From an uncultured Solirubrobacterales bacterium (GTDB taxonomy: Bacteria; Actinomycetota; Thermoleophilia; Solirubrobacterales; Solirubrobacteraceae): a stretch of DNA of 64,000 nucleotides. A program made the position numbers and the translations under genes. The DNA is taken from assembly GCA_963718625.1 (NCBI GenBank), contig OY970362.1:975845-1039844 (forward strand), read 5' to 3'. This document shows, in pieces, positions 26,192 through 44,933 of this stretch. The stretch's first letter is position 1, and the number at the start of each line of letters is the position of its first letter. A model generated the notes under the pieces. That model searched no databases. It saw nothing but the letters and a program-made list of their open reading frames with translations, and was not told the origin of the DNA.

Positions 26192-26214
26192 AGCTATCCC
26201 TCCATGTAGATGGC

Positions 26215-26234: not shown

Positions 26235-26323
26235 AAGCCGCGAAAAGCTTGCGTGCGCCGGCGCGGCCTGCGGCTCGCAGGCCGACCCGGCTGCGGGCGC
26301 CTTGCAGGAACTAGATTGCAGGG

Positions 26324-27880: not shown

Positions 27881-27972
27881 CGCCGCGCTGCCCCGGCGAG
27901 GCGGCCGTGCCCCTGCGGCGGGCGCGCGATCGCCGCGCGGCGCGCTGTCGCTGAGCCCTCTGCCAACGAGGC

Positions 27973-28587
27973 CTAGGTCCCCGCCACCGGGCTGTCTTCG
28001 ATTCCCGCGGCGCGCGTGTGCTCGTCCTGGAACGGCGGGTAGGTCTCGGTGAGCAGGAGCATGTAGGCGTCCGAGCGTGCGGTGTAGGAGTTGGCCAGCA
28101 CCATCAGGTCGAACAGCCCGCGCGGCATTTTCCCCGTCACGACGGTCACCGCCCAGGCCGCGACGCCGCCCACCTCGAGCAGCAGGCCGAACACGTAGCG
28201 CAGCACGTAGATCGGAATCGCGAGGATGATTCGAAAGAGCGTCTTCAGGCGGCTGTAGTGGTCCAGCGGCCCGTCGAACTGCATCCGCACCGGATAGGCC
28301 GGGTCGTCGGACCCGAAGAAGGACGGATAGGGGTCGGTCAGCAGCACCGCATATGACAGCGTGCGCGTGTAGAAGCGCGTGAAGTCCGCGACGAAGTCAT
28401 ACAGCCCCTTCGGGTAGCGGCCGGTGATCACGATCGCAAACCATGCGAGGATCACCGCCAGCAACGCCACCAGCCCGTAGAGCATCGCCCAGATGAACAG
28501 CGGGATCGCGAGGATCAGCCTGAAGAAGGACGTGAGCCGGTTGCGGTGCTCGGCGTAGTCGGCTTCAAACGTGACGGGATAGGACAC
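27973..28587 (-). CDS. DUF4389-type membrane protein
   Basis: Two repeats of ...FFRLILAIPLFIW...VITGRYPKGLYDF.... The GTG at 28587 has a GGGGGAG RBS. The ORF track extends to 28647. Confidence 0.75.
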   Translation of the reverse strand: MSYPVTFEADYAEHRNRLTSFFRLILAIPLFIWAMLYGLVALLAVILAWFAIVITGRYPKGLYDFVADFTRFYTRTLSYAVLLTDPYPSFFGSDDPAYPVRMQFDGPLDHYSRLKTLFRIILAIPIYVLRYVFGLLLEVGGVAAWAVTVVTGKMPRGLFDLMVLANSYTARSDAYMLLLTETYPPFQDEHTRAAGIEDSPVAGT

Positions 28588-28778
28588 GGTGCTCCCCCTT
28601 TGCCGGTGCAGCGTTCTGTTGCCTTGAGCCCATCGTAGGTCTGACATCGACCGTCCCGGCGTGTCGCGGACACGTGAACGGTTTCTTGCGTGGCGCCTTG
28701 ACGTGACGGCCCGGCCGGCTCCCCCCGGCCGGCTGGCCCTGTGGGCGCGACGCCGGCGATCGACTAGATTGCCGGGGC

Positions 28779-30191
28779 ATGCACGCCGCCGACCTCGCGT
28801 TCGCCGGGATCGCCAGGCAGGCCGAGCTGATCGCCGCCGGAGAGGTTTCGTCGCGCGAGCTGGTCGAGCTGTATCTGGAGCGCATCGGACGCTACGACAC
28901 CGAGCTGAACGCGTTCAGGGTCGTGCTCGCCGAGCGCGCGCGCCTGGAGGCCGACCAGGCGGATGCGCGACGGCGCGCGGGCGAGCAGCGGCCGCTGCTC
29001 GGCGTTCCGTTCGCGGTCAAGGACGACAGCGACGTCGCGGGCGAGCTAACGGCGCTCGGCACGAACGCCTACGGACCGCCTGCGAGCCAGGACAGCGAGG
29101 TCGTGCGCCGCCTGCGCGCGGCCGGCGCGGTCGTGCTCGGCAAGACCAACGTGCCCGAGCTGTGCGCGTTCCCCTGGACCGAGTCGCCGACGTGGGGCGC
29201 GACGCGCAACCCGTGGAACCTCCAGCGCAGCCCGGGAGGCTCGAGCGGCGGCAGCGCGGCGGCCGTGGCGGCGGGGCTCGTCGGGGCGGCGCTGGCCGCC
29301 GACGGCGGCGGATCGATCCGCTTTCCCGCGGCCTACTGCGGCCTGTTCGGCCTGAAGTCGCAGCGCGGCCGGGTGCCGCTGGCGCCGCGCGAGAACTCCT
29401 GGCATGGACTGTCGGTCAACGGCGTGCTGACGCGCTCGGTGAGCGACAGCGCGCTGTTCCACGACGCGATCGCCGACGGCCCGGCCGATCCCGGCGAGCC
29501 GGCGCTCGCCCCGCGCAGCCTCCTCGACGCGCTCGGCGCGGACTCGACGCGCTTGCGCATCGCTGTGTCCAGCAGGCTCCCGCCATCGCCGCTGACCCGC
29601 CTGGCACCCGACAACCGTGCCGCCCTGGAGGAGACCGCGAGGCTATTGGAGGGCCTCGGCCACGAGGTCAGCGAGCGCGAGATCGATCACGGCCCGCTCG
29701 CGCCGGCGCCCGAGTTCACGGCCCTGTATGTGGGCGGGCTGCACGACGACGCGATGGGGATGGCCCATCCAGAGCGCCTTGAACGGCGGATCCGGGCGCT
29801 GGCGCGGCTCGGCGGGCTCGCGTCTGGCGCGGTGCGCTGGGCCGAGCGGCGCAGGGCTGGCTACGCGGCGCGGCTGAACGAGGCGTTCGCCGATCACGAC
29901 GTGCTGCTGATGCCGGTCACGCCCGCGCCACCGCCGCGAATCGGCGCCTGTGAGGGGCGTGGCTGGCTGTGGACCACGACGATCGCGGCATCCACGGTGC
30001 CCTACGCCGCCTGCTGGAACGCCACCGGCCAGCCGGCGTGCTCGGTGCCGGCCGGGCTCGGCGCCGACGGGCTGCCGCGCGCCGTGCAGCTCGTGGGCAG
30101 ACCCGAGGACGAGGCGACGCTGATCTCGCTCGCCGCGCAGCTGGAAGCTGCGCGCCCGTGGGCCGACGCTCGTCCGCCGGGCTTTTCGTGA
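28779..30191 (+). CDS. amidase (amidase-signature family)
   Basis: GGSSGGSAAAVAAGLVGAALAADGGGSIRFPA signature. 470 aa. Confidence 0.9.
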   Translation: MHAADLAFAGIARQAELIAAGEVSSRELVELYLERIGRYDTELNAFRVVLAERARLEADQADARRRAGEQRPLLGVPFAVKDDSDVAGELTALGTNAYGPPASQDSEVVRRLRAAGAVVLGKTNVPELCAFPWTESPTWGATRNPWNLQRSPGGSSGGSAAAVAAGLVGAALAADGGGSIRFPAAYCGLFGLKSQRGRVPLAPRENSWHGLSVNGVLTRSVSDSALFHDAIADGPADPGEPALAPRSLLDALGADSTRLRIAVSSRLPPSPLTRLAPDNRAALEETARLLEGLGHEVSEREIDHGPLAPAPEFTALYVGGLHDDAMGMAHPERLERRIRALARLGGLASGAVRWAERRRAGYAARLNEAFADHDVLLMPVTPAPPPRIGACEGRGWLWTTTIAASTVPYAACWNATGQPACSVPAGLGADGLPRAVQLVGRPEDEATLISLAAQLEAARPWADARPPGFS

Positions 30192-30979
30192 GCGACGAGG
30201 GCGAGCTTGTCGCGGTCGCGATCGAGGCCGCGCGCACGGCCGGCGGGCTGCTGCTGGAGCGCGCCGCCCAAGGACGCGAGCTCGAGGTGTCGGCCAAGAG
30301 CACGCCAACCGACCCCGTCAGCGAGGCCGACCATGCCTCTGAACGGGCGATCCGCGAGCTGCTGGCCAGCCGGCGCCCGCTCGACGGGTTCGTGGGGGAG
30401 GAGGGCGGGGCCGAGCAGCCCGGCACGAGCGGACTGACCTGGGTCGTCGATCCGCTGGACGGGACGGCGAACTTCCTCTTCGGGATCCCGCAGTGGTCAG
30501 TGAGCGTCGCGGTGCGCGATCGCGACGGGACCCTGGCGGGCGCGGTCTATGACCCCAACCGCGACGAGCTCTTCAGCGCCACCAGGGATGGCCGCGCGAC
30601 GCTCACGGCGGCCGCGCAGGCGCTGGAGCTGAGCGGCTCCTCGCGCGAGGACCTCGCCACCGCGATGGTCGCCACGGGCCTGGCCTACGACGCGCAAGTG
30701 CGCGAGGCCCAGGCGCAGGTGCTCTCCGGCGTGGTGGGACGCGTGCGCGACATCCGCCGCTTCGGCAGCGCCGCACTGGACCTCGCGTGGACAGCGGCCG
30801 GGCGATATGACGCCTACTTCGAGCGCACGGTCAAGCAGTGGGACATCGCCGCCGGAGCGCTCGTCTGTGAACGCGCCGGGGTGTCGGTGGTCGGGCTGCA
30901 GGCGCGCGAGCGATTGCCGTGGGGGATACTCGCTGCGGCGCCGGCGCTCGTCGAACCGCTAAGAGAGCTCGTGGGCTAG
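30188..30979 (+). CDS. inositol monophosphatase family protein (SuhB/ImpA/HisN-like)
   Basis: The GTG at 30188 overlaps the amidase stop. WVVDPLDGTANF and WDIAAGAL motifs. Confidence 0.85.
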   Translation: MSDEGELVAVAIEAARTAGGLLLERAAQGRELEVSAKSTPTDPVSEADHASERAIRELLASRRPLDGFVGEEGGAEQPGTSGLTWVVDPLDGTANFLFGIPQWSVSVAVRDRDGTLAGAVYDPNRDELFSATRDGRATLTAAAQALELSGSSREDLATAMVATGLAYDAQVREAQAQVLSGVVGRVRDIRRFGSAALDLAWTAAGRYDAYFERTVKQWDIAAGALVCERAGVSVVGLQARERLPWGILAAAPALVEPLRELVG

Positions 30980-31031
30980 CAGCGCCGCGGCTGGCCGCGC
31001 CGCTCCTGGTGAGCTCGCCGCTCTCTGTGGA

Positions 31032-31114
31032 TGCGGCGGGTGGGAGTCGAACCCACACGCCCTGTTGGACAAGGCCTTTTGAGGGCCTCGCGTCTACCGT
31101 TCCGCCACCGCCGC
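31032..31114 (-). tRNA. tRNA-Leu (anticodon CAA)
   Basis: GCGGCGG acceptor pairs with CCGCCGC plus discriminator A. Anticodon loop CTCAAAA. Long variable arm. GGTTCGACTCC T-arm. Confidence 0.9.
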
Positions 31115-31186
31115 ACGCCGCAACTCAGTGTATGCCAGCCCCTGGCGGCCACGGGCGCGCGAGGCTGCGGGCGGGGTCCCCCGAGC

Positions 31187-31720
31187 TCAGGCGGGATGGG
31201 GCGGCGCGTCGGCGTAGAAGTCGCCGCCGAGCGACGGCGAGCGGCGCTCGAGCTCCACGTTCCAGCCCTGTTTGAAGCCGCGCATCGCAAATGCGATCAG
31301 CAGCATCTGCACCGGCACGATCAGCAGCGTGATCACCCCGAGCAGACCGGAGTTCAGCAGCGGCTGGGCGAACCCGGTCTTGTTGCGGTTAAACCAGCTG
31401 GGCCCGGCGACCAGCGCGAAGATCAGCAGCAGCACCGCTAGCGCCGAGGCGACGGGCAGCACGCCGCGATTCCAGCGCGCGGCGAAGAATGCGAGCGTCA
31501 GGTAGATCAGGATGTAGGCGATCTGCACCACCCAGGCCGACTCGAGCACCGCCCATCCGCCGACCGTGACGATCAGGACGAGCCCCGCGGAGACCAGCAG
31601 CAGCAGCACGACGGTCGCGCGAGTCGCCTGCACGACAGGCTTGTCGCGGTTGGGATGGGTGATCGTGACGCCGGGCTGCGCCTGGCCGCCTGGGATCGAG
31701 GACATCGCACACCTGACCAT
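31187..31720 (-). CDS. hypothetical polytopic membrane protein
   Basis: Four or five hydrophobic segments. Start taken at an internal ATG (31720, GGAGA RBS; 31705 is an alternative), because the longest ORF (to 31843) would run into tRNA-Leu(TAG). Confidence 0.65.
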   Translation of the reverse strand: MVRCAMSSIPGGQAQPGVTITHPNRDKPVVQATRATVVLLLLVSAGLVLIVTVGGWAVLESAWVVQIAYILIYLTLAFFAARWNRGVLPVASALAVLLLIFALVAGPSWFNRNKTGFAQPLLNSGLLGVITLLIVPVQMLLIAFAMRGFKQGWNVELERRSPSLGGDFYADAPPHPA

Positions 31721-31817
31721 ACAATCTCCGACGGCCCCCTGTGGGCGATGGAGCGTGGCGCGCCTGCGGCGAGCCGGCCGCGGCGGCGGGTTCGGCGGGT
31801 AGCCTCTCGGCTGCGCT

Positions 31818-31901
31818 GCGGGCGTGGTGGAACTGGTAGACACGCCGGCCTTAGGAGCCGGTGAGCACTAGCTCTTGGGGGTTCGAGTCCCTCCGCCCGC
31901 A
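31818..31901 (+). tRNA. tRNA-Leu (anticodon TAG)
   Basis: GCGGGCG/CGCCCGC acceptor plus A. D-loop GGAACTGGTAGA. Anticodon stem CCGGC/GCCGG with loop CTTAGGA. Variable arm GAGC-ACTA-GCTC. T-arm GGGGG-TTCGAGT-CCCTC. Confidence 0.9.
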
Positions 31902-31907
31902 TCGACA

Positions 31908-31933
31908 GAAAGGCCTGGACTTCCAGGCCTTTC
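31908..31933 (+). terminator. hairpin immediately after tRNA-Leu(TAG) (GAAAGGCCTGG-ACTT-CCAGGCCTTTC)
   Basis: 11-bp perfect stem with a 4-nt loop. A degenerate copy follows the tRNA remnant at about 33990-34009. Confidence 0.5.
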
Positions 31934-32163
31934 GTCGTTCTAGGGCCGTTTGGCACCGGGGCGTGCGGTGGCGCTGGGCTATACCGCCAGGCGTTCAGGT
32001 TCGGCCGGCGCTCCCAGGGCGCGGGAGTGGTTTCAGACGACTGGCTCCGGGTTGCTCATGCCGGCAGGACGGCGGCAAGCGATCGGCGTGGCTGCGCCCG
32101 AGCGTCCGTCGAGAACCGCAACGTGCTCCCCGCTGGACGAGGAGCACGTTGCAGACGGTCAGC

Positions 32164-33438
32164 TCAGGGACCGAAAACGTCGGTCGTGACTTCGAAGAAG
32201 TGGTTGTGCTTGATCTGTTCGGTGTTCGTTGGCCCGGTCAGGAAGATGCCGTAGTGGTTCGAGTAGATCACGTTGTGCTTGATCGTGATCGTCAGGGGGC
32301 TCCCGGCCGTACCGACGAACACGCCGGTCGTTTCTTTGTCCGGCACCGGGAAGTCCTTGTCGCCGTCCAGGTTGTTGGGCCCGATCCGGTTGTGGACGAT
32401 CCGGTTACCGTTGAGGTCCTGGTTCGGGAAGTGGTTGTGGAGCGTCACACCGGCAAGGCCGTTCCCCTGCACGAGATTGCCGCTGACGGTGTTGTTGTAC
32501 ACCGCGCCGCCCCCGATCGGGATGCCTGCCGCCAGCAAGACTCCGGCGCCTTCCCCTGCGACACCGTTGCCTTCCGCCACGTTGTCCTCGATCAGGTTGC
32601 CGTAGACGCCGGCCACTTTGGGATTTGGCGTTCCGCCCGGCGCTGCGGCGGGGTTGTGTCCGGCGAGCGTGATCCCGCAGTCCCCAGTGTTGTCCAAGAC
32701 CCAGTTGTGCGCGACGACGTTGCCGTCGGTCGGGCCGGTCTCGTCGGTCATCAGCACGCCGCCGGAGTTGTCGCGGATCGTGTTATCGACGATCTTCGAG
32801 TTCGACGTACCCATCAGGTGCACGCCCTCGCCGCAGTCGGGAAACGGGTTTTCCGCGGTCGGTTCGCACTCTGGGTAGGTTTTGGCTTTCCCGACGCCTT
32901 TGTCGTTGTACTGGATCGTGTTGTCCAGGATGGTCACGTTGCTCGTGCTGAGCGCTAGGACACCCTCGCCCACGGCATTTTCGATCGTGAAGCCCTTGAT
33001 GGTCGTTCCCGCAGCAAGCGGCTTCAACGTGAAGCCGTTGGGGTTGCCCGTCGCGTCGACGGTCGCCTGGCTGCCCTCGATGGTGACCGGCGTTTCGACG
33101 GTCACATCTTCGCGATAGATGCCTGGGCACACGACTATGTTGGTGCCCGGCGTGGTCGCAGCCGCGACCGCCGCGCCGATCGTGGCGTAAGCGGCCGATG
33201 AGCACGCGCCCAGGCCGTGTCCAGGGCCGTGGTGTCTGCGGTCGGCCGGCCTGGCGGCGGCCGGCAGCGAGGCGGGCGTGCCGTAACCGGAGGTCGAGCT
33301 GTTGACGTACAGCGTTGGCGGGGTCGGTGGCCCCGGCCCCCCGGCGGACGCGACCGCCGCAGTCATGCCGCCAACAGCGGCGGCAGAGAGAGCGACAGCG
33401 GCAATCGTACGCAGCCGCGAACCAGATGGCACGTGCAT
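32164..33438 (-). CDS. secreted right-handed parallel beta-helix repeat protein (NosD/pectate-lyase-like fold)
   Basis: AGGAGGAGG RBS. Signal-like N-terminus. Repeated ...N.I.DN.I..N... units (ILDNTIQYND, IVDNTIRDNSGG, IEDNVAEGNG, VSGNLVQGNG). Confidence 0.8.
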   Translation of the reverse strand: MHVPSGSRLRTIAAVALSAAAVGGMTAAVASAGGPGPPTPPTLYVNSSTSGYGTPASLPAAARPADRRHHGPGHGLGACSSAAYATIGAAVAAATTPGTNIVVCPGIYREDVTVETPVTIEGSQATVDATGNPNGFTLKPLAAGTTIKGFTIENAVGEGVLALSTSNVTILDNTIQYNDKGVGKAKTYPECEPTAENPFPDCGEGVHLMGTSNSKIVDNTIRDNSGGVLMTDETGPTDGNVVAHNWVLDNTGDCGITLAGHNPAAAPGGTPNPKVAGVYGNLIEDNVAEGNGVAGEGAGVLLAAGIPIGGGAVYNNTVSGNLVQGNGLAGVTLHNHFPNQDLNGNRIVHNRIGPNNLDGDKDFPVPDKETTGVFVGTAGSPLTITIKHNVIYSNHYGIFLTGPTNTEQIKHNHFFEVTTDVFGP

Positions 33439-33927
33439 GAACGGTCCTCCTCCTTGAGTTGGTGCTAGTCGAGCGACGGGCTTGAACCCCGCGATGCGAC
33501 CGCAGCGGTAGGCGTCGTCGCGACCCGCGAAACTACCAGACAGACGTGCACAGCGGCCGGCGTTTCGAGGCCAGCTGCCTCAGCGCTCGATCACCAGCTT
33601 GGTCCAGCCGCGCGCGGATCGTCGATCGCCGCCGGCGGGTCTTTGGTCGCACCGCTCAATCCACGAAACAGACGCATCGGCAGGAGGGTACCTGCCGTGT
33701 CCCAGCATCCCCCCTCAAGCGCCTGGTGCCCCAGACGACAAGACCGTGAGCAGATCAAGCCGCCGCCGCCATCGGTCCATGTAGACGGGACGCCTCTCGA
33801 GCTGCGGTTCGACGATGGCTGCCGTGTTCCCTGTGTGTTCCCAAATCGGCTAAACGAACTAGACGGCCGGCACCAAACCCGCATGGGAATGCGCCATGTC
33901 GCACCACTTTGAGGTCGGCAGCCAGAA

Positions 33928-34025
33928 CTTAGGAGCCGGTGGGCGAAAGCCCTTGGAGGTTCGAGTCCTCTCGCCCGCATCGACAGAACAGGCCTGGTAC
34001 TTCGGGCCTTTTCGCATTTCTAGGT
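33928..34025 (+). repeat. copy of the 3' half of tRNA-Leu(TAG) (anticodon loop to acceptor end, 33928-33979) plus about 45 nt of its downstream flank; att-like island boundary
   Basis: CTTAGGAGCCGGTGGGCGAAAGCCCTTGGAGGTTCGAGTCCTCTCGCCCGCATCGACAGAA.... There is no matching 5' half upstream. Variable-arm and T-stem differences are compensatory. Confidence 0.8.
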
Positions 34026-34481
34026 GCGCGCCGCCAGATCGGACCAGTCTCAGGTTGTGTAACACGATTGGTAACAATCTGGTACGCCGTAAAGCAAGTT
34101 CGAGCCCCCACCTGCGGCGGGGTAGGGAAGTCACTGGTGGACTTGCTTGACGCCTCACCTACGTAGCGCGAATCCGTAGTTTGCCCTGACCCGGAGCGCG
34201 GATCAGCGCGTAGCATTCGCTCGAACTTAGGGTTCCCTAACTTGTGGAGGAGCAGGAGGAGGGTGCGGTGGTCCCTCGCCGCCTCGGTCGTCTTTAACGA
34301 CGACGGTCGACCCAGGCGGCGGGGGACGCCTGCATCTAGCGGGAGGCCTGCAGCGTCTGGTCGTGCAGCGTCTGGTCGGGGAGGGAGGGGGGGGTCTGTG
34401 AGGGCACGTGCAGCCGGGTCCTGCAGCGGACGAACGTGCCCGCCTGAGGACTGGTCGACGATCGCTACCTTCGGCACTCCG

Positions 34482-35715
34482 TCAACCCGGCGTCAGCGAG
34501 TCGCCCTTGGGCACCATCTGCACGAAGTCCCCGAAGCGCTCGGGCTCCTCCAATCTGCACGACCAGACGAGGCGGTCGTTCCACACCGTCATATCGGGGC
34601 AGCCGTCGCACATGTTCTGCCGTCCGTCGTCGTAGATGTCGGCCGGCTGGATGATCATCACCGACTGGAAGCGGAGCCTCTGAAGCAGCCGTGAGGGCCT
34701 GCGGGCACCCGCTCTCAGCCAGTGGCGGGCGATCTTCCGCAGGCGCGGGTCGAGCGCGGACAAAAGCAGCATCGCCCTGCCATGTGCTCAGCGCCTGCGG
34801 CCCGGTGTAGGCGAGATACCTCCCTGTCGCGAGGTGGTGGAACGTCTGGGCGAGCTCCATCGAGCGCGGCCCGACGTAGCCGTAGACCCGCTCCTTGGTG
34901 GCAAGACGACCCGTGAGCAGCCACTTGAAGGTGTCGGGTCGCTCGGTCCCGTTGAGGTATGCGGCGGGAGCGAAGTCGGGGAAGCGCTTGCGGATCTCGG
35001 CCACGATGTCGGTCGATTGGAGCTCGTGCGGTGTCTGGTCGGTGGTGGCGTATGGCATCGTCGAGAAATCGACCGGCACGCCCCGTACGTACTGCTCAAA
35101 GCTGCCGCCCACGACGCCAGCGCGGAAGGCGATGAACACGATCGTGTGGACGATCTCGACGTTGCGCTGCGCCCACTGAACGATGTCGGGCACGTAGCGC
35201 AGCGTGTCCTCATAGACGGTCGCGTTGAACGAACAGCCCATCCCTCCCGTCGCGGCCACCATCTCGGCGTAGTGCTGGCGCAGCTCGCACAGCTCGATCT
35301 CATCCGCCTTCTTCCATCCCGGGCGGCCCTGCTTGGAGTCGATGTGGAACGTGAAGCCGGCTACGCCGGCGCCCTTTAGCTCCCTCAGCAGCTCCTCGGT
35401 GAGCGCCAAGCCGTTGGTATTGACGATCGGCTTGAGGCCCTCCCGCGCGACCAACCGGACGATCTCGACGATCTCGGGATGAACGAGCGGGTCGCCGCCC
35501 GCAATCGACACGCCGTCCACGGTGCGAAAGCGCTTGAAGACCTCGAGATCGTGACGAACCTCATCGAGGGTCTTGTGTCCCCGCGGGTCGTTCTCCCGGT
35601 AGCAGCCCAGGCACGCTAGGTTGCACTTCTTGGTTGGCTCCAGCCAGGCGATGGCGTTGTCGGGCAGCGACCACGGCAGGCGATAGAGCTGGCGATGATC
35701 GATGGTGGCGGTCAC
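34482..35715 (-). pseudogene. radical SAM enzyme (subfamily not recognised), apparently frameshifted near 34773-34787
   Basis: LEPTKKCNLACLGCYR (CX3CX2C) and SIAGGDPLVHPEIVEIV. After about residue 310 the 35715 frame becomes Arg/Pro junk. The protein-like C-terminus (VMIIQPADIYDDGRQNMCDGCPDMTVWNDRLVWSCRLEE) continues in the frame of ORF 34482-34772. Confidence 0.7.
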
Positions 35716-36281
35716 TTCAACCCCGCCTTCACGGCCGAGATCTCGAGCGCGATCTTCACCTTGTTGCCGAGGAGCGCTCCGCCTGTCTCAAGCGCCTGGT
35801 TCCAAATAAGACCGAAATCTCTACGGTTGAGCTCTCCGCGCAGCTTGAGCTCGATCCGCTCGTCGCCGGCTTCCTCGTGTCCCGTACCGTTGAGCTGTCC
35901 GTCGAGCTCGATCTCGCGGGTGACGCCACGCATTGTGAGCTCGCCGAGAATACGCAGGCGCCCGCCGTCGACGTAGTCGATCCGGTTTGAGTTGAACCTG
36001 ATCTCCGGATAGCGCTCGACGTCAAAGAAGTCGGGCGAGCTCCGCAGGTGCTCGTCGCGCACCGGCTCCCTCGTGTCGATCGAGGCGGCCTCGACCATTC
36101 CAGTCGCCCGCGCGCCACCTGCTCCTACCTCCAGCATCCCATCGAACTTCCGGAAGCGACCATTCACCGTCGCGAGCACCATGTGCTTCACGGCGAACGC
36201 GACACTCGAGCCCGGAGCGTCGACTGACCACTTGCCTGCGGGTACAAAGCTCACGCTGCTGGTCTCATCCACCACGGACAT
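35712..36281 (-). CDS. YceI-family (polyisoprenoid/lipid-binding) protein
   Basis: VAFAVKHMVLATVNGRFRKFDG...ASIDTREPVRDEHLRS.DFFDVERYPEIRF...LTMRGVTREI. Its stop overlaps the radical SAM GTG start (GTGA at 35712-35715). Confidence 0.85.
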   Translation of the reverse strand: MSVVDETSSVSFVPAGKWSVDAPGSSVAFAVKHMVLATVNGRFRKFDGMLEVGAGGARATGMVEAASIDTREPVRDEHLRSSPDFFDVERYPEIRFNSNRIDYVDGGRLRILGELTMRGVTREIELDGQLNGTGHEEAGDERIELKLRGELNRRDFGLIWNQALETGGALLGNKVKIALEISAVKAGLK

Positions 36282-36508
36282 CTGGAGACTCCCTGCTCGG
36301 GTGACGCTGCTCGACGGGCAGACTCGACGCTACCCCGCACCAGCGCATCCGTAGAAGACCCCGTCGTTGCTCGGTGACTCTCCGCACGCGCCTGTACGGC
36401 GTTTCACGGCGTTTACAACCCGCCGATGGCTTGCGCGGGCCGGCGGCTACCAACCAGCAGCTTCAAGAGCGATACGAAGACAGGTGGCCCCCCGTTGTCG
36501 GCTCGACG

Positions 36509-36568
36509 GTCAAGCGAAGAGATCGACTCGGCGGGCTCGTCCATGAGTACTACCGGGCCGCGACGTGA
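36509..36568 (+). mobile_element. remnant of a transposase C-terminal tail (VKRRDRLGGLVHEYYRAAT-stop)
   Basis: An R-x-x-LGGL-x-x-EY-x-RAA ending is typical of rve/DDE-type actinobacterial IS transposases. No upstream catalytic domain is present in any frame, and the IS family is not resolved. Confidence 0.35.
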
Positions 36569-36657
36569 TGGATCAGGCTTTTGGCACCCCTGCACGCTGC
36601 CGCACGGGGCGCCTGCGTCTCTTCCCGGCGCGGTGGATCGTCACATCTCAGGCTGGG

Positions 36658-36882
36658 TCAGCGTTTCCGTGGTGACGCTTGCTGCGGCCGCTTGCTGCCT
36701 CGCCCAGCTCGAAGGGCGCCGCTCGCGGGCGTGTAGATGGTCTCGTGGCCGTCGTCCCAGCGGATCCGATAGCGAGGCGAGGGATCGCCTCGGAGTACCT
36801 CCTCGACGACACCCGAGCGGGGTCGGCGATCCGTTGACTCGGACTCCGCTACGACACGCTTGCCGACCTCAAAGGCCATCAT
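36658..36882 (-). CDS. DUF1918-like small protein
   Basis: ...GVVEEVLRGDPSPRYRIRWDDGHETIYTPASG.... Start taken at MMAFEVGK within ORF 36658-36939. Confidence 0.65.
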   Translation of the reverse strand: MMAFEVGKRVVAESESTDRRPRSGVVEEVLRGDPSPRYRIRWDDGHETIYTPASGALRAGRGSKRPQQASPRKR

Positions 36883-37026
36883 CACCCCTCGTCGCTCAAT
36901 CTCACCGGGGAGCGACCCCGGCGGAACGCAAGCTACCACCGCCCGCCGCCCCCTGCACGGTCGTGTGGACTGGGCGGCGCGCGTTTGCCTGACCCGCCGT
37001 GGCGCGAGCGACCGCTCCGGCGATGA

Positions 37027-37413
37027 TCAGCTCGCTTTGCCTCTCTTCGTCGACCGTTTGGGCGAGCTCGTGGGGCGGGCGGCCTTGCTCGACCGGCCGG
37101 CGTTCACGCGCCGTGCGCTCGTTGCGCGTTTTGGGGCTGAGGTCGCGCGTTTTGGGGCTGGGCGAGCGGTCGCCTTGCCTTTTACCAGAGCCTGCTGGAT
37201 CTGCTGGAGGTCCTTGGCAATCCGCCGACGGCTGCGGTTTAGGTTCCGACGACTCGCTTTGAGCGTCGTGCCGATGTCCTTGAGCAGGGCGCGATTGTTG
37301 CGACTCACCTCGCCCTGTAGATCCTTGAGCGCGGTTTCGGCGGCCTCGATCGAGGCCTGCAAACGGTCAAGCGCTGCGCTGCCGGCCTGCTTCGCACGGC
37401 GGGTCTGGGGCAT
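37027..37413 (-). CDS. hypothetical basic protein: N-terminal coiled-coil-like segment plus Lys/Arg/Ala/Ser/Pro-rich tail with an APKRATS tandem repeat (histone-H1-like composition)
   Basis: The ATG at 37413 is preceded by GGGAGGGAG. The tail reads ...KGKATARPAPKRATSAPKRATSARRVNAGRSSKAARPTSSPKRSTKRGKAS. Confidence 0.6.
   Translation of the reverse strand: MPQTRRAKQAGSAALDRLQASIEAAETALKDLQGEVSRNNRALLKDIGTTLKASRRNLNRSRRRIAKDLQQIQQALVKGKATARPAPKRATSAPKRATSARRVNAGRSSKAARPTSSPKRSTKRGKAS
37124..37160. repeat. 21-bp-period tandem duplication (GCGCGTTTTGGGGCTG, two copies) inside the basic-protein gene
   Basis: The 16-nt core is identical at 37124-37139 and 37145-37160. It encodes the PKRATSA PKRATSA repeat. 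Confidence 0.85.
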
Positions 37414-37729
37414 GTCTTCTCCCTCCCAATCGTTCCTGGCGATGATCAGCCCACGCGTACGCGAATACACGAGCGGCGGTCGTTCTCACCCATCTCACGG
37501 CGTAGGCCTCCTCCAATCGTCTTTGACTCGGACATGAGGGAACCTACGCCGTCGCCCCCCGTAGGTCGCAAGCCGGTCGTATGCGGTGTCGGGCTCGGGG
37601 TAATGGTCGAACTAGTTTACCGGCACGCCGAGCGGGTGCGACGGCCCGGCAGGCCTGCGGATTACTACGGGGACAGCTCGCGCATTGCTACCGATGGCAG
37701 CAAGGGGCCGGCAGGCTAACCTGCCGGCG

Positions 37730-39226
37730 ATGGCCGACCCGCTTACCGCACTGGACGCGACGTTCCTCGAGCTCGAGCAGATGGACGAGGGCGCGACGAT
37801 GCACATCGGGGGTGTGATGGTCTTCGATCCACCGCCAGACGGAACCGTCCCCGCGCTCGAGGCGGTGTGCGCGAACATCGCGTCGCGCCTGACCCTGCTG
37901 CAGCGCTACTCCCAGCGGCTCTCCTCGGAGCGGACAGGAGGGCTGACGTGGCCACGCTGGCATGAGGATCCCCAGTTCGACATCAGCAACCACGTGCGCC
38001 ATGCCGCACTGCCAGCACCAGGCAGCGAGGTCGAGCTGTGCGAATGGGCGGCGGACTTCTTCTCACACCGACTCGATCGCACGCGCCCGCTGTGGGAGAT
38101 GGTGCTGGTCGAGGGGCTCGAGCACGGTCGCTGGGCGCTGGTCATCAAGATGCACCACTGTCTCGTGGACGGGATCGGGTTGGTCGGCGTGGTGCACCTG
38201 CTGCTCGACGCCGAGCCGCCTGCCTGCCCCACCGCTGCCCAGCCGACGGCGGACGGGCCGGGCTCGCCGTGGCGAACGCTCGTCCCGCACCCGCCGGACG
38301 CGGTCGCGGACCTGGCGAGAACGGGTGCGCGCGCGGCGGCCGCCGGCGTACATGCGGCGCTGCATCCTCGCGAGGCACTCGAGAAGTCCCGCTCCTTGGC
38401 CGAGCTGATCGTGCGCGACGAGCTGATCGCCGCCCCCTGCACCAGCCTCAATGCGCCGATCGGGGCGACGCGCCGGTTTGAGATCGTGCGCGCCTCGCTG
38501 CTCGACCTGAAGGCAATCCGGCGCGAGTTCGGAGGCTCAGTCAACGATGTCGTGTTGGCGGCCTGCACCGCCGGTCTGCGCCGCCTGCTGCTTTCGCGTC
38601 GTGAGCCGCCCCCGACGGAGGGTCTGCGCGCGATGGTCCCGATGAACGTCCGCAACGACTCGGAGCAGCTTGCGCTCGGCAACCGTGTCAGCTCGCTGTT
38701 CGTGGAGCTCCCGGTCGCCGAGTCCGACGCATTCGCGCGCTTTCGCAAGGTCGTCGAGCACACGAGCAGGCTGAAGTCATCGGGGGCGGCGCTCGGTGCC
38801 GCAACGATGATCGATCTTGCCGCGCTCGCCCCGCCGCTACTGCACGCGCCGATCGCGCGCTCCCTGTACGCGACGCGCCTGTTCAATGTGACGATCACCA
38901 ACGTACCGGGGCCTCCGTTGCCGCTGTACGCGTTAGGTGCGCCGCTGCGCGAGGTTTACCCGATCGTCCCGCTCGCGGCAAAGCACACCGTTGGCATCGC
39001 GATCGTCTCCTACAACGGGGGCATCGTGCTCGGCCTCAGCGCCGACTGCGACTCCACGCCCGACCTCCACGTCCTCGCCGAGGGAGTAGAGGAAGGCTTC
39101 ACCGAGCTCCGCACGCTGCTCCCGCCCGAAGCGCCGAGGCCGTCTGCGAGGCCCAAGTCCCTAAAGCCCAAGGGCCCGCTCACGGTGGTCGCGACCCCCA
39201 AGCTGATCGCCGGCGCTAGGTCCTGA
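37730..39226 (+). CDS. wax ester synthase / diacylglycerol acyltransferase (WS/DGAT) family
   Basis: MADPLTALDATFLELE N-terminus. Catalytic HHCLVDGIG (HHxxxDG) motif. About 498 aa. Confidence 0.9.
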   Translation: MADPLTALDATFLELEQMDEGATMHIGGVMVFDPPPDGTVPALEAVCANIASRLTLLQRYSQRLSSERTGGLTWPRWHEDPQFDISNHVRHAALPAPGSEVELCEWAADFFSHRLDRTRPLWEMVLVEGLEHGRWALVIKMHHCLVDGIGLVGVVHLLLDAEPPACPTAAQPTADGPGSPWRTLVPHPPDAVADLARTGARAAAAGVHAALHPREALEKSRSLAELIVRDELIAAPCTSLNAPIGATRRFEIVRASLLDLKAIRREFGGSVNDVVLAACTAGLRRLLLSRREPPPTEGLRAMVPMNVRNDSEQLALGNRVSSLFVELPVAESDAFARFRKVVEHTSRLKSSGAALGAATMIDLAALAPPLLHAPIARSLYATRLFNVTITNVPGPPLPLYALGAPLREVYPIVPLAAKHTVGIAIVSYNGGIVLGLSADCDSTPDLHVLAEGVEEGFTELRTLLPPEAPRPSARPKSLKPKGPLTVVATPKLIAGARS

Positions 39227-39658
39227 CCCTGCGGGTGCTCGTTATGCGCCGTTCACCGATAATGGCCACGCGGGGATGCCATGCGGCGCTCGGCGCAGGT
39301 GCCCCGGCGCGAGCACGAGCGGTCAACATCAGACCGCGGCCGAGCACGTGGCGGACGTCGTGTGGCATGAGGATGTCGAGGCGAGGCGTGACAAGCCCGA
39401 GATCAGCGAGGGCAAGTGGTTCCTATCCCGTGTTGGCGCCGAGACTGACGAGGAGCTGACCCCGAGGCCATACGGCAAGGAGGAATGCCGACGCAGCGAT
39501 CGAGCAGGCCGAACGTCTGCTCAGTGCCTCGTGACCAAACGCGCCTTCTACTGGATGGTGGGTAACGCTTCGGGTAACGATGGACTCGACGCAGCCGCTC
39601 AAACCCGATTTAGCTGCACGGGGCAGCCCGCAGTTACCGGCGCTGCACACATCGGGCA

Positions 39659-39713
39659 GGCCTTAGGAGCCGGTGGGCCCTGGGCCCTTGGGGTTCGAGT
39701 CCCTCCGCCCGCA
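39659..39713 (+). repeat. second partial copy of the tRNA-Leu(TAG) 3' half (att-like distal boundary)
   Basis: GGCCTTAGGAGCCGGTGGGCCCTGGGCCCTTGGGGTTCGAGTCCCTCCGCCCGCA. There is no 5' half upstream. The acceptor and T-loop are identical to the intact gene. Confidence 0.8.
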
Positions 39714-39967
39714 TTACAGTCGTGGCAACAAATATTCGTTTGGAAATCGACTCCCAGGCTTAGCGGTCCGGCTAGGATGTTCGCGCGAATATGGTGGATC
39801 GACACGGTCGCTCCTCCGCGGAAATCAGGCGTGTCGGCTGTCGTGATGCTTAGCTAGCGAGCGTCTGATTTAGGGCCCAACACAGCTGGGCCGTCCGTCC
39901 TGAGCGGCGACGGGTGCCCGACTCCGCCAGCCCTGGACTCCTCGCATGCCGCGAGTGCGAGCTGTCG

Positions 39968-40309
39968 CTAGCCGCCCGCCTCGGCTTCCGCGATCCGGCC
40001 CGCCTCGCCGCGCTTTTCGACCACGACATAACCGGGGTAGACCTCGACAGTCGACTCGACGGCCGCTTCCTCATGCCCTGGGAGTAGGACGAACCGGCGC
40101 GGATGGGATCGCACGCGGGCGTACTCCCCAATCGAGAGGTCCAGCACCCCACCGCAATCCACGCGGACGCACTCGCATATGAAGGTGTCGGCCGACTGTC
40201 CGTTGCGCGGACGCTGATACTCGATTCTGTCGTTTATGCGCCGCGCCAGGGCCTCGTTCTGCGCCATACGGCGCTTGCGTCGATCATCCACTCCCGGGAA
40301 CCATTCCAC
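39968..40309 (-). CDS. hypothetical protein (start may be the ATG at 40267)
   Basis: The ORF has normal composition (MAQNEALARRINDRIEYQ...FICECVRVDCGG...). The longest form overlaps the TetR gene end by 26 nt. Confidence 0.5.
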   Translation of the reverse strand: MEWFPGVDDRRKRRMAQNEALARRINDRIEYQRPRNGQSADTFICECVRVDCGGVLDLSIGEYARVRSHPRRFVLLPGHEEAAVESTVEVYPGYVVVEKRGEAGRIAEAEAGG

Positions 40310-40913
40310 TCAGGCGGGGAAAGCGCTCTCGGTACTGATCGATGAGCTGGCGTGCCATCGACTTGCCTCGCCGCGCTGCTTGCGCATCGCCCTCGGCTGC
40401 TACGACGATCGAGCCCTGAATGAGGATGTGCCACGAGCGCGCGAACGACTCGGTGTCGCGCAGGCCGGCTTCCTCGGCTAAGCGGCGTACGATCGCGCGG
40501 AGCTGCTCGAGATGCCAAACGCTGGCGCCGCCCGCAGGATGCCCAGGGCCGAGTTCGAGCAGTACCTTGATAAACGAGCCCGCCTCGAAGTCCTCGCGAT
40601 GAAACCACTCGTCGAGTACATCGAAGATGGCGAGTAGTCGCTCCTCGGGGTTCGAGCCGCGACGCATGGCCCCGGCTTCAATGAGGTCTTTGGTCCAGCG
40701 CTGTTCGCGGAGGTCGAGGAACGCGAGTACGAGCTCGTCCTTTGAGCGGAAGTGCCGGTAGAGCGTCGCGGTCGCGACGCCCGCGCGCTCAGTGACCTCG
40801 TTGACCCCCACTGCTTGGATGCCGCGTCGCGAGAACAGCTCGTACGCGGCATCCAGAATCCGCTCGCGGGCGCTGACCCCCGTCTCGGCCGGCTGGTGGT
40901 GGGTTTCAAGCAT
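40284..40913 (-). CDS. TetR/AcrR-family transcriptional regulator
   Basis: N-terminal HTH ILDAAYELFSRRGIQAVGVNEVTERAGVATATLYRHFRSKDEL. Confidence 0.9.
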   Translation of the reverse strand: MLETHHQPAETGVSARERILDAAYELFSRRGIQAVGVNEVTERAGVATATLYRHFRSKDELVLAFLDLREQRWTKDLIEAGAMRRGSNPEERLLAIFDVLDEWFHREDFEAGSFIKVLLELGPGHPAGGASVWHLEQLRAIVRRLAEEAGLRDTESFARSWHILIQGSIVVAAEGDAQAARRGKSMARQLIDQYRERFPRLSGMVPGSG

Positions 40914-40931
40914 GCCTTAGCAGGGTATCAC

Positions 40932-40974
40932 TAGAAAGAACGTTCTCTCTATGATAGAAAGAGCGTTCTCTCTA
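40932..40974. promoter_or_regulatory. two tandem 20-bp imperfect palindromes (TAGAAAGAACGTTCTCTCTA at 40932-40951; TAGAAAGAGCGTTCTCTCTA at 40955-40974); likely TetR operators
   Basis: AT-rich, centred on GAACGTTC. They sit 19-61 nt upstream of the tetR start and 50-92 nt upstream of the divergent small ORF at 41024. Confidence 0.6.
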
Positions 40975-41023
40975 GTCGCTTGAAGGGCTTTTTGAGGAGC
41001 ATTCGACGGAAAGGAGGGGTCCC

Positions 41024-41179
41024 ATGGGGCTCTTGGAGTTGCTTTTGATTGTCCTAGTAATCGCAGCTGTCGCGGGCGGGATCGGTCTAAGCCCGTTGCT
41101 TTGGCTGTTGCTGGTGGTAGCCCTCGTGGTCTTCCTCACGGGCGGCGGATTCGGTTATCGCAGAGGCGGGAGGATCTAG
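41024..41179 (+). CDS. small (51-aa) two-TM membrane protein
   Basis: AAGGAGGGG RBS 5 nt before the ATG. MGLLELLLIVLVIAAVAGGIGLSPLLWLLLVVALVVFLTGGGFGYRRGGRI. Below the ORF-track size cutoff. Confidence 0.55.
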   Translation: MGLLELLLIVLVIAAVAGGIGLSPLLWLLLVVALVVFLTGGGFGYRRGGRI

Positions 41180-41181
41180 GT

Positions 41182-41388
41182 ATGCCTATCGGCACATCGA
41201 TCTTCCTCATCGCCGTCGGCGCGATCATCCGCTACGGCCTGACGTTTCACGTGTCGGGTGTATCGCGCCCAACGATCGGCCTGATCCTCATCATCGCCGG
41301 CATCGTCGGTGTGGTGCTGTCGCTGTTCTATATGGCCACTGCTCGACGGCGAGTAGTCGGCGGACCTTACGAAGAACGGCGCCTCTAG
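41182..41388 (+). CDS. small (68-aa) two-TM membrane protein (DUF6458-like)
   Basis: The ATG lies 2 nt after the previous stop. MPIGTSIFLIAVGAIIRYGLTFHVSG...IGLILIIAGIVGVVLSLFYM. Confidence 0.6.
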   Translation: MPIGTSIFLIAVGAIIRYGLTFHVSGVSRPTIGLILIIAGIVGVVLSLFYMATARRRVVGGPYEERRL

Positions 41389-41613
41389 TGTCCGAGTGAC
41401 CCTGCGAGCAAGCGCCGCAAGGGATCGAGCCCGTCAGCCGCCTACGCCGCCCGCCCTGCTGGACGGGCGGCGGGCTCGGCTTGAGACGCCGGGACGCGGC
41501 GGCTTTTAGCTCCAGCGGCACGAGGACCCACCGCGCGCCTTCTCGGCTAGACGTCTTCCGTCGGCCACACGGGCGCCCGAAACCCAAACAAAGCTAGCTA
41601 CAGGAGGAAAACC

Positions 41614-42024
41614 GTGAGCACCGGAACGATCATCGGAATTGCTGTCGGCGCCGTGGTGGTGCTACTGCTCATTGCCCTCGTCGCTCGCGCCGCGAGTCGC
41701 AGGCGTGACGAACGTCGTCGTGAGCAGGCGGGCGAGCTTCGCCAGGAGGCCAGAAGCCGTTCGATCCAAGCCGAAACTGCGCGTGCCTCGGCTGATGAGC
41801 AGGCCGCCCAAGCCAAGCGTGCGCAGGCTGAAGCTGAGGAACGCGCCGCCCAGGCGCGGCAGGGACATGCCGCCGCGGAGCGACAGGCGCTCGAGGCTGA
41901 GCATTTGACCCAGTCTGCCCGCGATCAGCACGCGCAGGCACGAGCGATCGACCCAGATGCGAGCGACACCGGACAAGACGAGGCACTGGCGATCAATGAG
42001 CGGTCCGGCCGCGAGGGTCGCTGA
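41614..42024 (+). CDS. membrane-anchored coiled-coil protein (hypothetical)
   Basis: AGGAGGAAAACC then GTG. An N-terminal TM (IIGIAVGAVVVLLLIALVA) is followed by an R/E/A/Q-rich helix. Confidence 0.6.
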   Translation: MSTGTIIGIAVGAVVVLLLIALVARAASRRRDERRREQAGELRQEARSRSIQAETARASADEQAAQAKRAQAEAEERAAQARQGHAAAERQALEAEHLTQSARDQHAQARAIDPDASDTGQDEALAINERSGREGR

Positions 42025-42211
42025 GCTCATGAGCCGCGCCAGAGCCGGCGACCTACCACAGCCTGAGCGTGCGCCCAGCGCACCCCGTCGCACACTGTCC
42101 AAAGAAGGCTGGAGACCGGCCCTCGCGTCTGACCTCCCCGACCTCCAGGTAGTTCGACTTCCGGTCGTCGCGATGGCCGGCGCATGCGGTCGCGTCTCAA
42201 GGGACGTACCG

Positions 42212-42730
42212 ATGCTCGGTATGCCGGACTCGCAGCGGGCGCAGGGCGACACGCGCCGCGAGACGCCGCTCGAGCGCCTCGACCGCAACCTCGAGGAGCT
42301 CACCGGCGAGCTGCGCGTCGTTGTGACCGGGGTGCAGGTTCTCTTTGCGTTCCTACTGATCGTGCCATTCAACACCGGCTTCGCCCACGTCGGGGACTTC
42401 GAGCGCACGGTGTACTTCGTCACGCTCATGCTGACCGCACTGGCGGCCGTCTGCACGATCGCGCCCTCGGCCGAGCACCGCGTCCTATTCCGCCACGACG
42501 ACAAGCACCACATCGTGCTCAGGTCGAACCGCGTCGTGATCGCGGGCCTCGCGTTTCTCGCGATGGCGATGTGCGGCTGTCTACTGCTCGTCACGACAAC
42601 GCTGTTCGGCGTGACGGCAGGTGTGATCACTGCGAGCGTCGGCGCGATCCTGTTCGCGGGGCTGTGGTTCATCATGCCGATCGCTCGCCTGCGCAAGCTC
42701 GAAACCGAACAACGCGACCCTCACCGCTGA
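42212..42730 (+). CDS. DUF6328-like membrane protein
   Basis: ETPLERLDRNLEELTGELRVVVTGVQVLFAFLLIVPFNTGF...SAEHRVLFRHDDK.... Start taken at an internal ATG of ORF 41957-42730. Confidence 0.6.
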   Translation: MLGMPDSQRAQGDTRRETPLERLDRNLEELTGELRVVVTGVQVLFAFLLIVPFNTGFAHVGDFERTVYFVTLMLTALAAVCTIAPSAEHRVLFRHDDKHHIVLRSNRVVIAGLAFLAMAMCGCLLLVTTTLFGVTAGVITASVGAILFAGLWFIMPIARLRKLETEQRDPHR

Positions 42731-43086
42731 GCGCGGCTAAACCGGCGGCGCAGCGGCCCGCAGCTGCTCGCCTAGCGTGACGGGAGGAATCGCCGTCTCG
42801 GTGATCCGCTCGATCACCTCAGGGTCCTCGATCCGCGCCCGTTCGGGTCTCGAACCCCCGGCAGCGTCCGCGCTGCGAGATTCCCGCCGCGCCGCCGTTA
42901 CTTCGCCACCGCCGCGCTATCGCTGGCCCCGCAGGCGCCTCGCCGTCGATCTCCAATCATCCTGCCGATATCCGTGTCGCCGGGCCTCGAAGCAGATTTC
43001 CAGTTGTCGCAGGCGGGTATCGGTCGGGCATACCTGAGACGGCAGGAGCCAGTGATGGCCAAAATCACGGCCGAGCTCGGCTCGCG

Positions 43087-44892: not shown

Positions 44893-44933
44893 CGGGCCCA
44901 GGCTACATCAGGCCCAGAGTGAAGCGACCGCCC

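Follow-up and report, generated by a model that had tools for sequence, protein, structure and literature searches.

Probable scars of small tyrosine-integrase elements behind tRNA-Leu(TAG) in an uncultured Solirubrobacterales genome

The tRNA-Leu(TAG) locus and its displaced 3' halves

We analysed a stretch of 64,000 nt (the window) from an uncultured Solirubrobacterales bacterium (Solirubrobacteraceae; GCA_963718625.1, OY970362.1:975,845-1,039,844, forward strand), which belongs to a metagenome-type assembly and lies on a contig of 2.93 Mb. In it, an intact tRNA-Leu(TAG) gene is followed by two displaced copies of its own 3' half and by a variable interval that ends at gene X, the first gene of a conserved right flank (Table 1). 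Beside the half copies lie arm sequences homologous to those of integrase-bearing elements that occupy the same tRNA in relatives; other relatives have an empty site, and no integrase is present in the window. Together, these features point to the partial copies as attR-type scars (att, attachment site) of small tyrosine-integrase elements that entered the anticodon loop of tRNA-Leu(TAG), a reading to which we assign, from sequence comparison, a probability of about 0.75. A preliminary description of this DNA had seen in it the attL/attR arrangement left by integrated elements, and the integrase elements at the same tRNA, the matching arms and the empty sites agree with that view.

Loci of relatives were collected with the 218-aa membrane protein encoded upstream of tRNA-Leu(TAG) as the query, yielding 80 loci from species-level genomes, all Solirubrobacteraceae or Solirubrobacterales, and 80 metagenome loci (160 in total). 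Relatives' loci carry L-numbers and public sequencing runs (soil, peat) carry X-numbers. Scans of genomes and metagenomes with the membrane protein returned nothing above 78-84% identity, and an exact-sequence look-up of three window proteins matched no record. Nearer relatives were reached through homologues of the beta-helix protein (L161) and through the public runs, whose contigs are shallow (2-5x) and provide presence-only data.

Table 1. Features of the tRNA-Leu(TAG) locus, numbered from the first nucleotide of the window
Feature	Position	Strand	Basis
Intact tRNA-Leu(TAG)	31818-31901	+	ARAGORN (31817-31903), Rfam 56.8 bits
Copy 1, 3' half of the intact tRNA, attL core	31848-31901	+	nhmmer 56 bits
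Stub of type A left (P') arm: TCGACAGAA, hairpin, TTCTAGG	31902-31946	+	flank homology, fold
Beta-helix module	32017-33611	-	recurring borders
NosD-like right-handed beta-helix gene, 424 aa	32164-33438	-	Pfam NosD 4e-19, Beta_helix 5e-17; NCBIfam
Non-coding stretch ending in type B right (P) arm	33612-33927	+	GTGTTCCC at 33824, 33835, then TTCCCAAATCGGCTAAACGAACTAGACG
Copy 2, displaced 3' half, structurally intact	33928-33979	+	nhmmer 60.5 bits, E=2e-16
Type A left (P') arm of island 2	33980-34117	+	hairpin, direct repeats, L073 homology
Radical SAM gene, two frames	34482-35715	-	Pfam Radical_SAM 8e-17
YceI-family gene, 189 aa	35712-36281	-	Pfam YceI 2e-37
Small DUF1918 gene	36658-36939	-	six-frame Pfam DUF1918 6e-10; open reading frame
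Basic protein, 147 aa, repeated APKRATS motif	37027-37470	-	open reading frame
WS/DGAT acyltransferase gene, 513 aa	37685-39226	+	Pfam WS_DGAT_cat 7e-61; TIGR02946 418 bits
Type A right (P) arm of island 2: TGGGTAACGCTTCGGGTAACGATG (39559-39582), conserved spacer	39556-39659	+	arm alignment
Copy 3, displaced 3' half, T stem one G short	39660-39713	+	nhmmer 46.2 bits, E=5e-12
Segment S, truncated copy of a family-wide cluster	39714-43077	.	Pfam, homology
ORF113	39968-40309	-
TetR	40284-40913	-
DUF6458	41101-41388	+
DUF6328	41957-42730	+	>1000 homologues, 75-82% identity
DUF7218 remnant, first ~7 codons, ATGGCCAAAATCACGGCCGAGC, fused to GT87 3' flank	43056-43077
GT87-like glycosyltransferase, 601 aa	gene 43087-44892, segment 43078-44933	-	Pfam GT87 4e-7
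Gene X, 561 aa, no family; first gene of conserved right flank	44934-46619	-	position in relatives

The intact tRNA and two partial copies without a 5' half, as first reported, were recovered by profile search, ARAGORN and Rfam. An nhmmer profile made from 55 distinct tRNA-Leu(TAG) 3' halves of relatives has three significant matches in the 64 kb, all on the + strand (copies 1, 2 and 3), and the pattern GGTTCGAGTCCN4GCCCGCA has three exact matches in the window, with 0.21 expected. Copies 2 and 3 have no 5' half, and neither ARAGORN nor Rfam calls a tRNA there; Rfam at E<=1 returns two tRNAs and nothing else in the window. When the three copies are aligned, the tRNA similarity of copies 2 and 3 is seen to begin at C32, in the anticodon loop, which is also where the truncated copies of five relatives begin. 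A fourth tRNA-like match (40629-40665) lies inside the TetR gene; it was not confirmed by the profile search and was taken as chance.

The copies are 68-81% identical in pairwise comparison and represent different natural alleles. A chimera of the window's 5' half and copy 2 folds as a perfect tRNA-Leu(TAG), and the variable arm of copy 2, TGGGCGAAAGCCCTT, is the commonest allele among relatives (23 times). The T stem exists in relatives as two co-varying alleles, GGGGG/CCCTC (n=28) and GGAGG/CCTCT (n=25). Copy 3 has GGGG instead of GGGGG, which gives a U.C first T-stem pair when ARAGORN is run on its chimera; the missing G falls in a homopolymer, and coverage in the public contigs is too low to bridge copies 2 and 3. 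With this G restored, copy 3 and the window's 5' half make up exactly the tRNA of L132, where the site is empty. Both half copies would thus once have been functional, copy 2 completing a perfect tRNA and copy 3 equalling the L132 tRNA after addition of one G. The earlier statement that the differences among the copies preserve structure stands for the fold of copy 2 and for the two natural T-stem alleles; it does not extend to the GGGG of copy 3.

The intact tRNA is orthologous to that of L161, from which its variable arm (GAGC-ACTA-GCTC, versus GGGC-GCTA-GCCC in L161) differs by one compensatory pair and one loop base, a change that is in-place evolution of a working tRNA. Copies 1 and 2 also have in common ~45 nt of downstream flank (31902-31946 and 33980-34025), including a hairpin with folding energies of -26 kcal/mol after copy 1 and -15 kcal/mol after copy 2. 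This repeated flank and its hairpin had been noted before; the hairpin had been taken for a terminator, degenerate after copy 2, and a simple terminator scan calls neither of the two.

Element arms, intact elements and empty sites in relatives

A tyrosine integrase gene, transcribed away from the tRNA, lies 165-330 nt after the same tRNA in 8 of the 80 genomes (L001, L011, L022, L033, L048, L057, L060 and L073). These proteins match Pfam Phage_integrase at up to 1e-28 and NCBIfam Xer-like models below cut-off, and three metagenome contigs have the same arrangement. A half copy in direct orientation follows downstream at 6.0 kb in L011, 7.7 kb in L057 and 9.4 kb in L060, and remnants are also found in L056 and L066. 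The attL and attR halves of L057 carry different T-stem alleles, which fits a crossover upstream of the T stem with the element supplying its own half, as the preliminary description had supposed.

The type A family was defined here from L001, L022, L033, L048, L057, L060 and L073. Its intact elements (6-9.4 kb) encode the integrase, a Replic_Relax protein and variable cargo, which among the L057 and L060 open reading frames includes GNAT, GrpB, nucleotidyltransferase and hydrolase(s) by Pfam. Type A elements contain no phage genes, and scans of viral contigs for type A attP/attL patterns gave 0 matches. Decay is common in this family: the integrase is N-terminally truncated in L011, frameshifted in L060 and missing from L056.

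Two further repeats were seen beside tRNA-Leu(TAG) in relatives. In L049 (~10638-10760, window orientation), a 55-nt unit ending in the tRNA's last 12 nt (CCTCCGCGCGCA) occurs twice directly after the tRNA, and in L060 (20145-20165) the same 12-mer, CCTCCGCGCGCA, appears again 4 nt past the half copy. They may have been left by a third type of element, one that targets the very 3' terminus of the tRNA.

The left (P') arm of type A elements runs from the tRNA end through TCGACAGAAAAGGCC with its hairpin and a spacer of ~35 nt to GGGTAACA-N4-6-GGGTAACA and the integrase start, the repeat pair being found 60-80 nt after the tRNA in 8 relatives. Their right (P) arm bears TGGGTAACAGATTGGGTAACA (GGGTAAC direct repeats) ~90 nt ahead of the half copy. 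The GGGTAACA direct repeats are presumed arm-type integrase sites, and the paired repeats of both arms in general probably serve as such sites. The hairpin that the element brings probably ends the tRNA transcript ahead of the integrase gene.

Both arms were recognised in the window by local alignment compared with 500 shuffles; every arm alignment scored above all 500, with matching offsets. The stub after the intact tRNA keeps the flank that follows the tRNA in the integrase-bearing elements of L060, L073 and L033 (score 38 with L073; shuffles 16.4+-2.3), without the GGGTAACA repeats and the integrase that come next in intact elements. The flank of copy 2 (33980-34076) matches the left arm of L073 more extensively, at 77% over 96 nt by blastn (E=3e-11) and with a local alignment score of 76 (shuffles 16+-2.5). 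It includes GTGTAACA (34057-34064) and TGGTAACA (34069-34076), each one mismatch from GGGTAACA, and then GAGCCCCCACCT at the position where the integrase gene starts in intact elements. Homology to L073 and L060 fades at ~34117, the start of their integrase gene, and contigs of X1 with 0-2 differences cover 34002-34393. At the other end of island 2, the right arm before copy 3 aligns at the matching offset with L057 (37) and L060 (42; shuffles ~16.5+-2.4). Four of the nine GGTAAC sites in the window lie within the arms of island 2. When the other non-coding stretches were compared with the 80 loci by blastn, the type A arm alone was returned.

A second kind of arm, type B, precedes copy 2. In the whole 64 kb, GTGTTCCC is found at just two positions, immediately upstream of copy 2, and the 48 nt after the pair match the L066 island's right arm, which lies equally far from its half copy (41; shuffles 15.3+-2.1). 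Such GTGTTCCC pairs also come after the tRNA (L066, L031) or after the half copy (L060). Six-frame Pfam searches of 33612-33927 found nothing. Island 1, earlier delimited as one element (~31946-33927) with a beta-helix gene and non-coding DNA, does have that content; it is composite, because its left end is of type A and its right end of type B.

The first 44 nt of this non-coding stretch (33612-33655), which include a GC-rich palindrome and have no match in Rfam, are also present at one other locus in X1, X10, X7, X9 and X5, where GAAGGTGCTGACGGTCTCCCACCCCTCAAA forms the left flank and weaker similarity continues to GACGCATCG.

Upstream of the insertions, gene order is kept in the family: carboxyltransferase, DUF4389, amidase, inositol monophosphatase, tRNA-Leu(CAA), membrane protein and tRNA-Leu(TAG). 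Depending on the gene, these are present in 59-80 of the 80 genome loci, DUF4389 in only 32. Comparison of the locus among relatives, 8 of 80 being occupied by an integrase, showed an empty site in 28 of 77, in which the gene X stop lies 27-213 nt after tRNA-Leu(TAG). Since gene X adjoins the tRNA in relatives with an empty site, the inserted interval of the window is 31904-44933. This interval, variable relative to the family, measures 13 kb and exceeds the 7.9 kb first described; it does not end at 39713 and reaches 44933, including a third segment without an att scar.

In twelve more relatives (L012, L013, L044, L047, L058, L059, L064, L065, L068, L006, L028 and L015), gene X stands 0.8-5.9 kb from the tRNA, and no tRNA half copy was detected in them. 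Because these twelve have the gap but no half copy, insertions without an att scar are common at the tRNA/gene X junction. None of the window genes of 31.9-44.9 kb was found in the 160 loci, except for a 53% identical WS/DGAT homologue, which lies inside the type A island of L056.

Three direct copies, two of them with a common downstream flank, could also have arisen by tandem tRNA-Leu or segmental duplication followed by loss of the 5' halves, with no mobile element involved. Such an origin is exceedingly improbable: all truncations start at C32, here and in five relatives, the sequences next to the copies are arms of integrase-bearing elements, the copies are too diverse (68-81% identity, different natural alleles), and in relatives gene X comes straight after a single tRNA.

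The integrase itself has disappeared from the window. Over 31.8-45.1 kb, tblastn with type A integrases and relaxase-like proteins reached E=0.4 at best, and a search of the complete window was negative; six-frame Pfam at E<=1 over 31904-32163, 33439-34481, 36282-37700 and 39227-40283 found DUF1918 only; Pfam of the window's open reading frames shows no integrase, and no Replic_Relax match exists in the window. The earlier statement that no integrase is recognisable therefore holds, down to the lack of any detectable fragment around copies 2 and 3. The remaining island DNA is unable to move by itself. By analogy with the CIMEs discussed below, a type A integrase supplied from another place might still be able to excise island 2, which has kept both arms, in trans; no excision joints were seen in the public contigs (2-5x depth, presence-only).

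The patchwork interior and its absence from closer relatives

Of the gene content first described, the beta-helix, YceI, radical SAM, DUF1918, basic and WS/DGAT proteins were recovered; a supposed transposase-tail remnant was not, six-frame Pfam at E<=1 showing nothing of that kind. The N-terminus of the beta-helix protein is signal-peptide-like as judged by eye. The basic 147-aa protein has no family match above threshold, and a 21-nt tandem repeat (37121-37160) encodes its APKRATS motif twice.

Near 34785-34787 the radical SAM gene contains a single additional base, and its G+C content at third codon positions switches frame at ~34800. The extra base is absent from X3 relatives and from L167, which has an intact 434-aa gene, and from an X1 contig >=98% identical to the window; NCBIfam did not confirm the frameshift. 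The frameshift reported earlier is thus a property of the window sequence that the X1 contig does not share, and it may be a strain difference or an assembly error. In the window the YceI stop abuts the radical SAM start (35712-35727); in L167, ~5 kb with MerR and MMPL genes lie between them. Because these homologues are ~5 kb apart in L167, the window's arrangement looks like a deletion product.

Downstream of copy 3, the ORF113-TetR-DUF6458-DUF6328 cluster of segment S runs on into a DUF7218 gene in L163 and L164. Homology to S covers 39967-42931 in L163 (93.8%) and goes no further; in L164 it reaches 43076, and the DUF7218 gene of L164 carries on beyond that point. In the window this gene stops at 43077/43078, which is an illegitimate junction with the GT87 3' flank, and contigs of X25 and X26 cross it with 0 differences (43002-43183). 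None of the 160 family-level loci has the GT87 gene downstream of its tRNA.

Two side observations concern this end of the interval. Between the divergent TetR and DUF6458 genes, two adjacent near-identical 20-nt palindromic repeats, TAGAAAGAACGTTCTCTCTA (40932-40974), look like a putative TetR operator pair. The right flank (44934-48926), which consists of gene X, an N-terminal methylation (pilin-like) protein and a large CarboxypepD_reg-like protein, has a G+C content of 0.56-0.60, versus ~0.70 for the genome, and precedes tRNA-Trp at 49067.

Among closer relatives, L161 is collinear with the window over 25824-33609 and 43075-46633, with flanks ~88-90% identical, and has the order tRNA, same hairpin stub, beta-helix, 33-nt spacer, GT87, gene X, with no half copy. 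Contigs of X2, X9 and X6, whose beta-helix regions are 98.6%, ~98% and 94.5% identical to the window, likewise break at 33610/33611 and continue with the GT87 3' end, so that the beta-helix gene adjoins the GT87 gene in all four. The beta-helix module also occurs in a different context in L162 (9826-11417), at 90.6% identity and with the same right border. Overall, it was seen in three contexts at ~90% identity with that border unchanged, the L162 context lying near an integrase fragment.

Several of these observations weigh against the array being a set of att scars built up at this tRNA. The 9.46-kb block 33611-43077, in which the type B arm, copies 2 and 3, island 2 and segment S all lie, is missing from L161, X2, X6 and X9; neither of its borders coincides with an att site or is flanked by repeats, and site-specific integration at the tRNA cannot yield an insertion of 33611-43077. 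The unequal distances of these relatives from the window are more easily explained by an insertion in the window lineage than by a single deletion common to them. The left end of the block has a different neighbour in some genome of the X10 sample, to judge by an X10 contig >=98% identical from 33607 rightwards that is preceded by GCGTCAAGGCGAGCAGCC and not by the beta-helix upstream region, and no independent reads in public runs cover the junction 33610/33611. The beta-helix, YceI, radical SAM and S modules have sharp borders and unrelated contexts in relatives (the 0.7-kb YceI module, 35691-36393, in L165, L166 and L167), which implies that the interior is not simple element cargo; the array interior is a patchwork of 0.7-3 kb modules. 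No att scar was found at the right end of the third segment (39714-44933), the open reading frames that first follow the type B arms of L066 and L031 match no family and so reveal no type B recombinase, and no sister strain with an excision precise at the att sites was seen. The islands had earlier been called fixed remnants: they are integrase-less remnants, and the four relatives without 33611-43077 qualify the word fixed.

Taken together, this evidence raises the alternative that the scars are genuine and the array was built elsewhere, the block having been inserted whole between the beta-helix gene and GT87, whether through illegitimate recombination or through homologous exchange with a block-bearing strain; the beta-helix gene would then belong with GT87 and not with island 1. 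We regard this as rather unlikely. The shared junction CC(C)TCGAGC... between the beta-helix and GT87 genes at unequal distances in L161, X2, X9 and X6 speaks for it, as do the borders that are neither att sites nor flanked by repeats, the truncated DUF7218 gene in which S ends, the read-confirmed S/GT87 junction and the identity to the X2 population, which is mosaic (94-99%) and suggests recombination among strains. Against it, the block lies 1.7 kb from the tRNA-Leu(TAG) gene whose correctly oriented halves it carries, a placement unlikely to occur by chance in a 2.9-Mb contig; its left end (P arm plus half copy) is what the attR of a beta-helix island would look like; and the donor's own array would still have had to arise in place. 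The resemblance of the L161 spacer to the DUF7218 remnant (p=0.11) falls short of significance and speaks for neither side. Because the block adjoins the tRNA whose halves it holds and starts with the attR-like end of the beta-helix island, its position and orientation favour construction in place, followed by a spreading deletion allele.

A further alternative is quite unlikely in our estimate, namely that the tRNA-Leu/gene X interval is an accretion site whose short gene modules are shuffled among Solirubrobacteraceae genomes by a mechanism other than a tRNA integrase, with island 2 perhaps excisable in trans. Candidates, with sharp borders that recur, are the beta-helix (32017-33611), YceI (35691-36393), radical SAM (34499-35722) and S (39967-43076) modules.

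An artefact, be it chance similarity or chimeric assembly at tRNA-like repeats, is very improbable. The metagenome-type assembly of a 2.93-Mb contig, a radical SAM frameshift that may be an assembly error, and the lack of same-strain independent reads over the 33610/33611 junction and copies 2 and 3 leave room for it. Yet chance similarity, a possibility raised in the preliminary description, is excluded by E=2e-16 for copy 2 and 5e-12 for copy 3, and copies 68-81% identical are too different to mislead an assembler. Moreover, parts of every segment (island 1, island 2, S, GT87 and gene X) are represented at a similar depth of 2-5x in X1 and X10 contigs that differ from the window at 0-3 positions, mostly at none, and 34002-34393 and 43002-43183 are confirmed by contigs with 0-2 differences.

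Proposed history and comparison with known systems

Repeated integration into a regenerated tRNA gene stacks elements, with the newest beside the tRNA. For the scar interpretation that we prefer, the expected geometry is given in the Islander paper (PMC4383910; Williams 2002 cited there): attP holds the tRNA sequence from the anticodon loop to the 3' end, and when the crossover takes place in the loop, the gene is restored at attL and the displaced half comes to lie at attR (PMC4383910). Applied to the window, an element's attP copy (C32 to the 3' end) would complete the tRNA, and the resident half would be pushed to the far end. A type A element brings a tRNA half, a hairpin, two GGGTAACA repeats and an integrase gene, with the repeats again in its right arm; a type B element carries GTGTTCCC repeats in both arms.

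We infer the order of events, and the building of the array in place, from the arrangement of these parts. On this reading, island 2 (33980-39659) is a type A element with both arms kept, its integrase lost by a deletion starting at the gene's first codons. Because island 2 is of type A, the arm before copy 2 of type B and the stub after the tRNA again of type A, at least three integrations would be needed (type A, then type B, then type A), plus several internal deletions. The deletions, following the stacking, would have removed the integrases and fused neighbours, and additional events not involving att sites would account for the third segment and the block polymorphism.

For genome annotation, the consequence is that ~13 kb are best treated as accessory, mosaic DNA. 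The locus adds an integration hotspot, tRNA-Leu(TAG) beside a conserved pilin-like gene cluster, in an abundant uncultured family of soil actinobacteria, and it defines type A att cores and candidate arm sites well enough for testing. Both arms of a type A element are present in the window, and the integrase and Replic_Relax gene are absent; such arms reveal integrase-less remnants that integrase-dependent island finders miss.

Several known systems resemble what is seen here. CIMEs (cis-mobilizable elements) of streptococci are att-flanked elements without recombination or transfer genes. Island 2 is similar in being bounded by attL/attR-like sites with core and arm repeats and in having no integrase or transfer protein; unlike them, its left-arm repeats each contain a mismatch and no cognate integrase is encoded in the 64-kb window. 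The attP of phage lambda combines a core site with arm-type integrase binding repeats, to which the GGGTAACA-N4-6-GGGTAACA and GTGTTCCC pairs in the arms, at fixed distances from the core, and the integrase gene directly beside the P' arm in intact relatives may be compared. Unlike lambda, type A elements encode Replic_Relax and no phage genes. Actinomycete integrative and conjugative elements (AICEs) such as pSAM2 and SLP1 are small actinobacterial elements with a tyrosine integrase that inserts into the 3' part of a tRNA. Type A elements share with them the actinobacterial host, the tRNA 3' target, the tyrosine integrase and the small size, whereas L057 and L060 are, by Pfam, without an FtsK/SpoIIIE-like transfer protein or an AICE-type replication protein.

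The closest counterparts are the genomic islands collected by Islander and TIGER. In Islander, 2083 of 3919 islands have a site centred on the anticodon, and tandem arrays number 125 with two or more islands and 4 with three or more (PMC4383910). As in those islands, an intact tRNA stands at one end, displaced 3' fragments in direct orientation mark where islands end, identity extends over the tRNA from its anticodon loop to its 3' end, and elements are stacked at one tRNA. Among the features by which Islander recognises an island, the window has the intact tRNA, the displaced direct fragment and a site unoccupied in relatives, and it lacks the integrase gene required per island, so that such tools would miss it. 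It also differs in its patchwork interior with illegitimate junctions and in its host, an uncultured Solirubrobacteraceae. General concepts are unchanged by the finding: the scar is of a familiar type, met here in a group that has received little study, and what is newly described is two element families at a tRNA-Leu(TAG) hotspot of an uncultured family.

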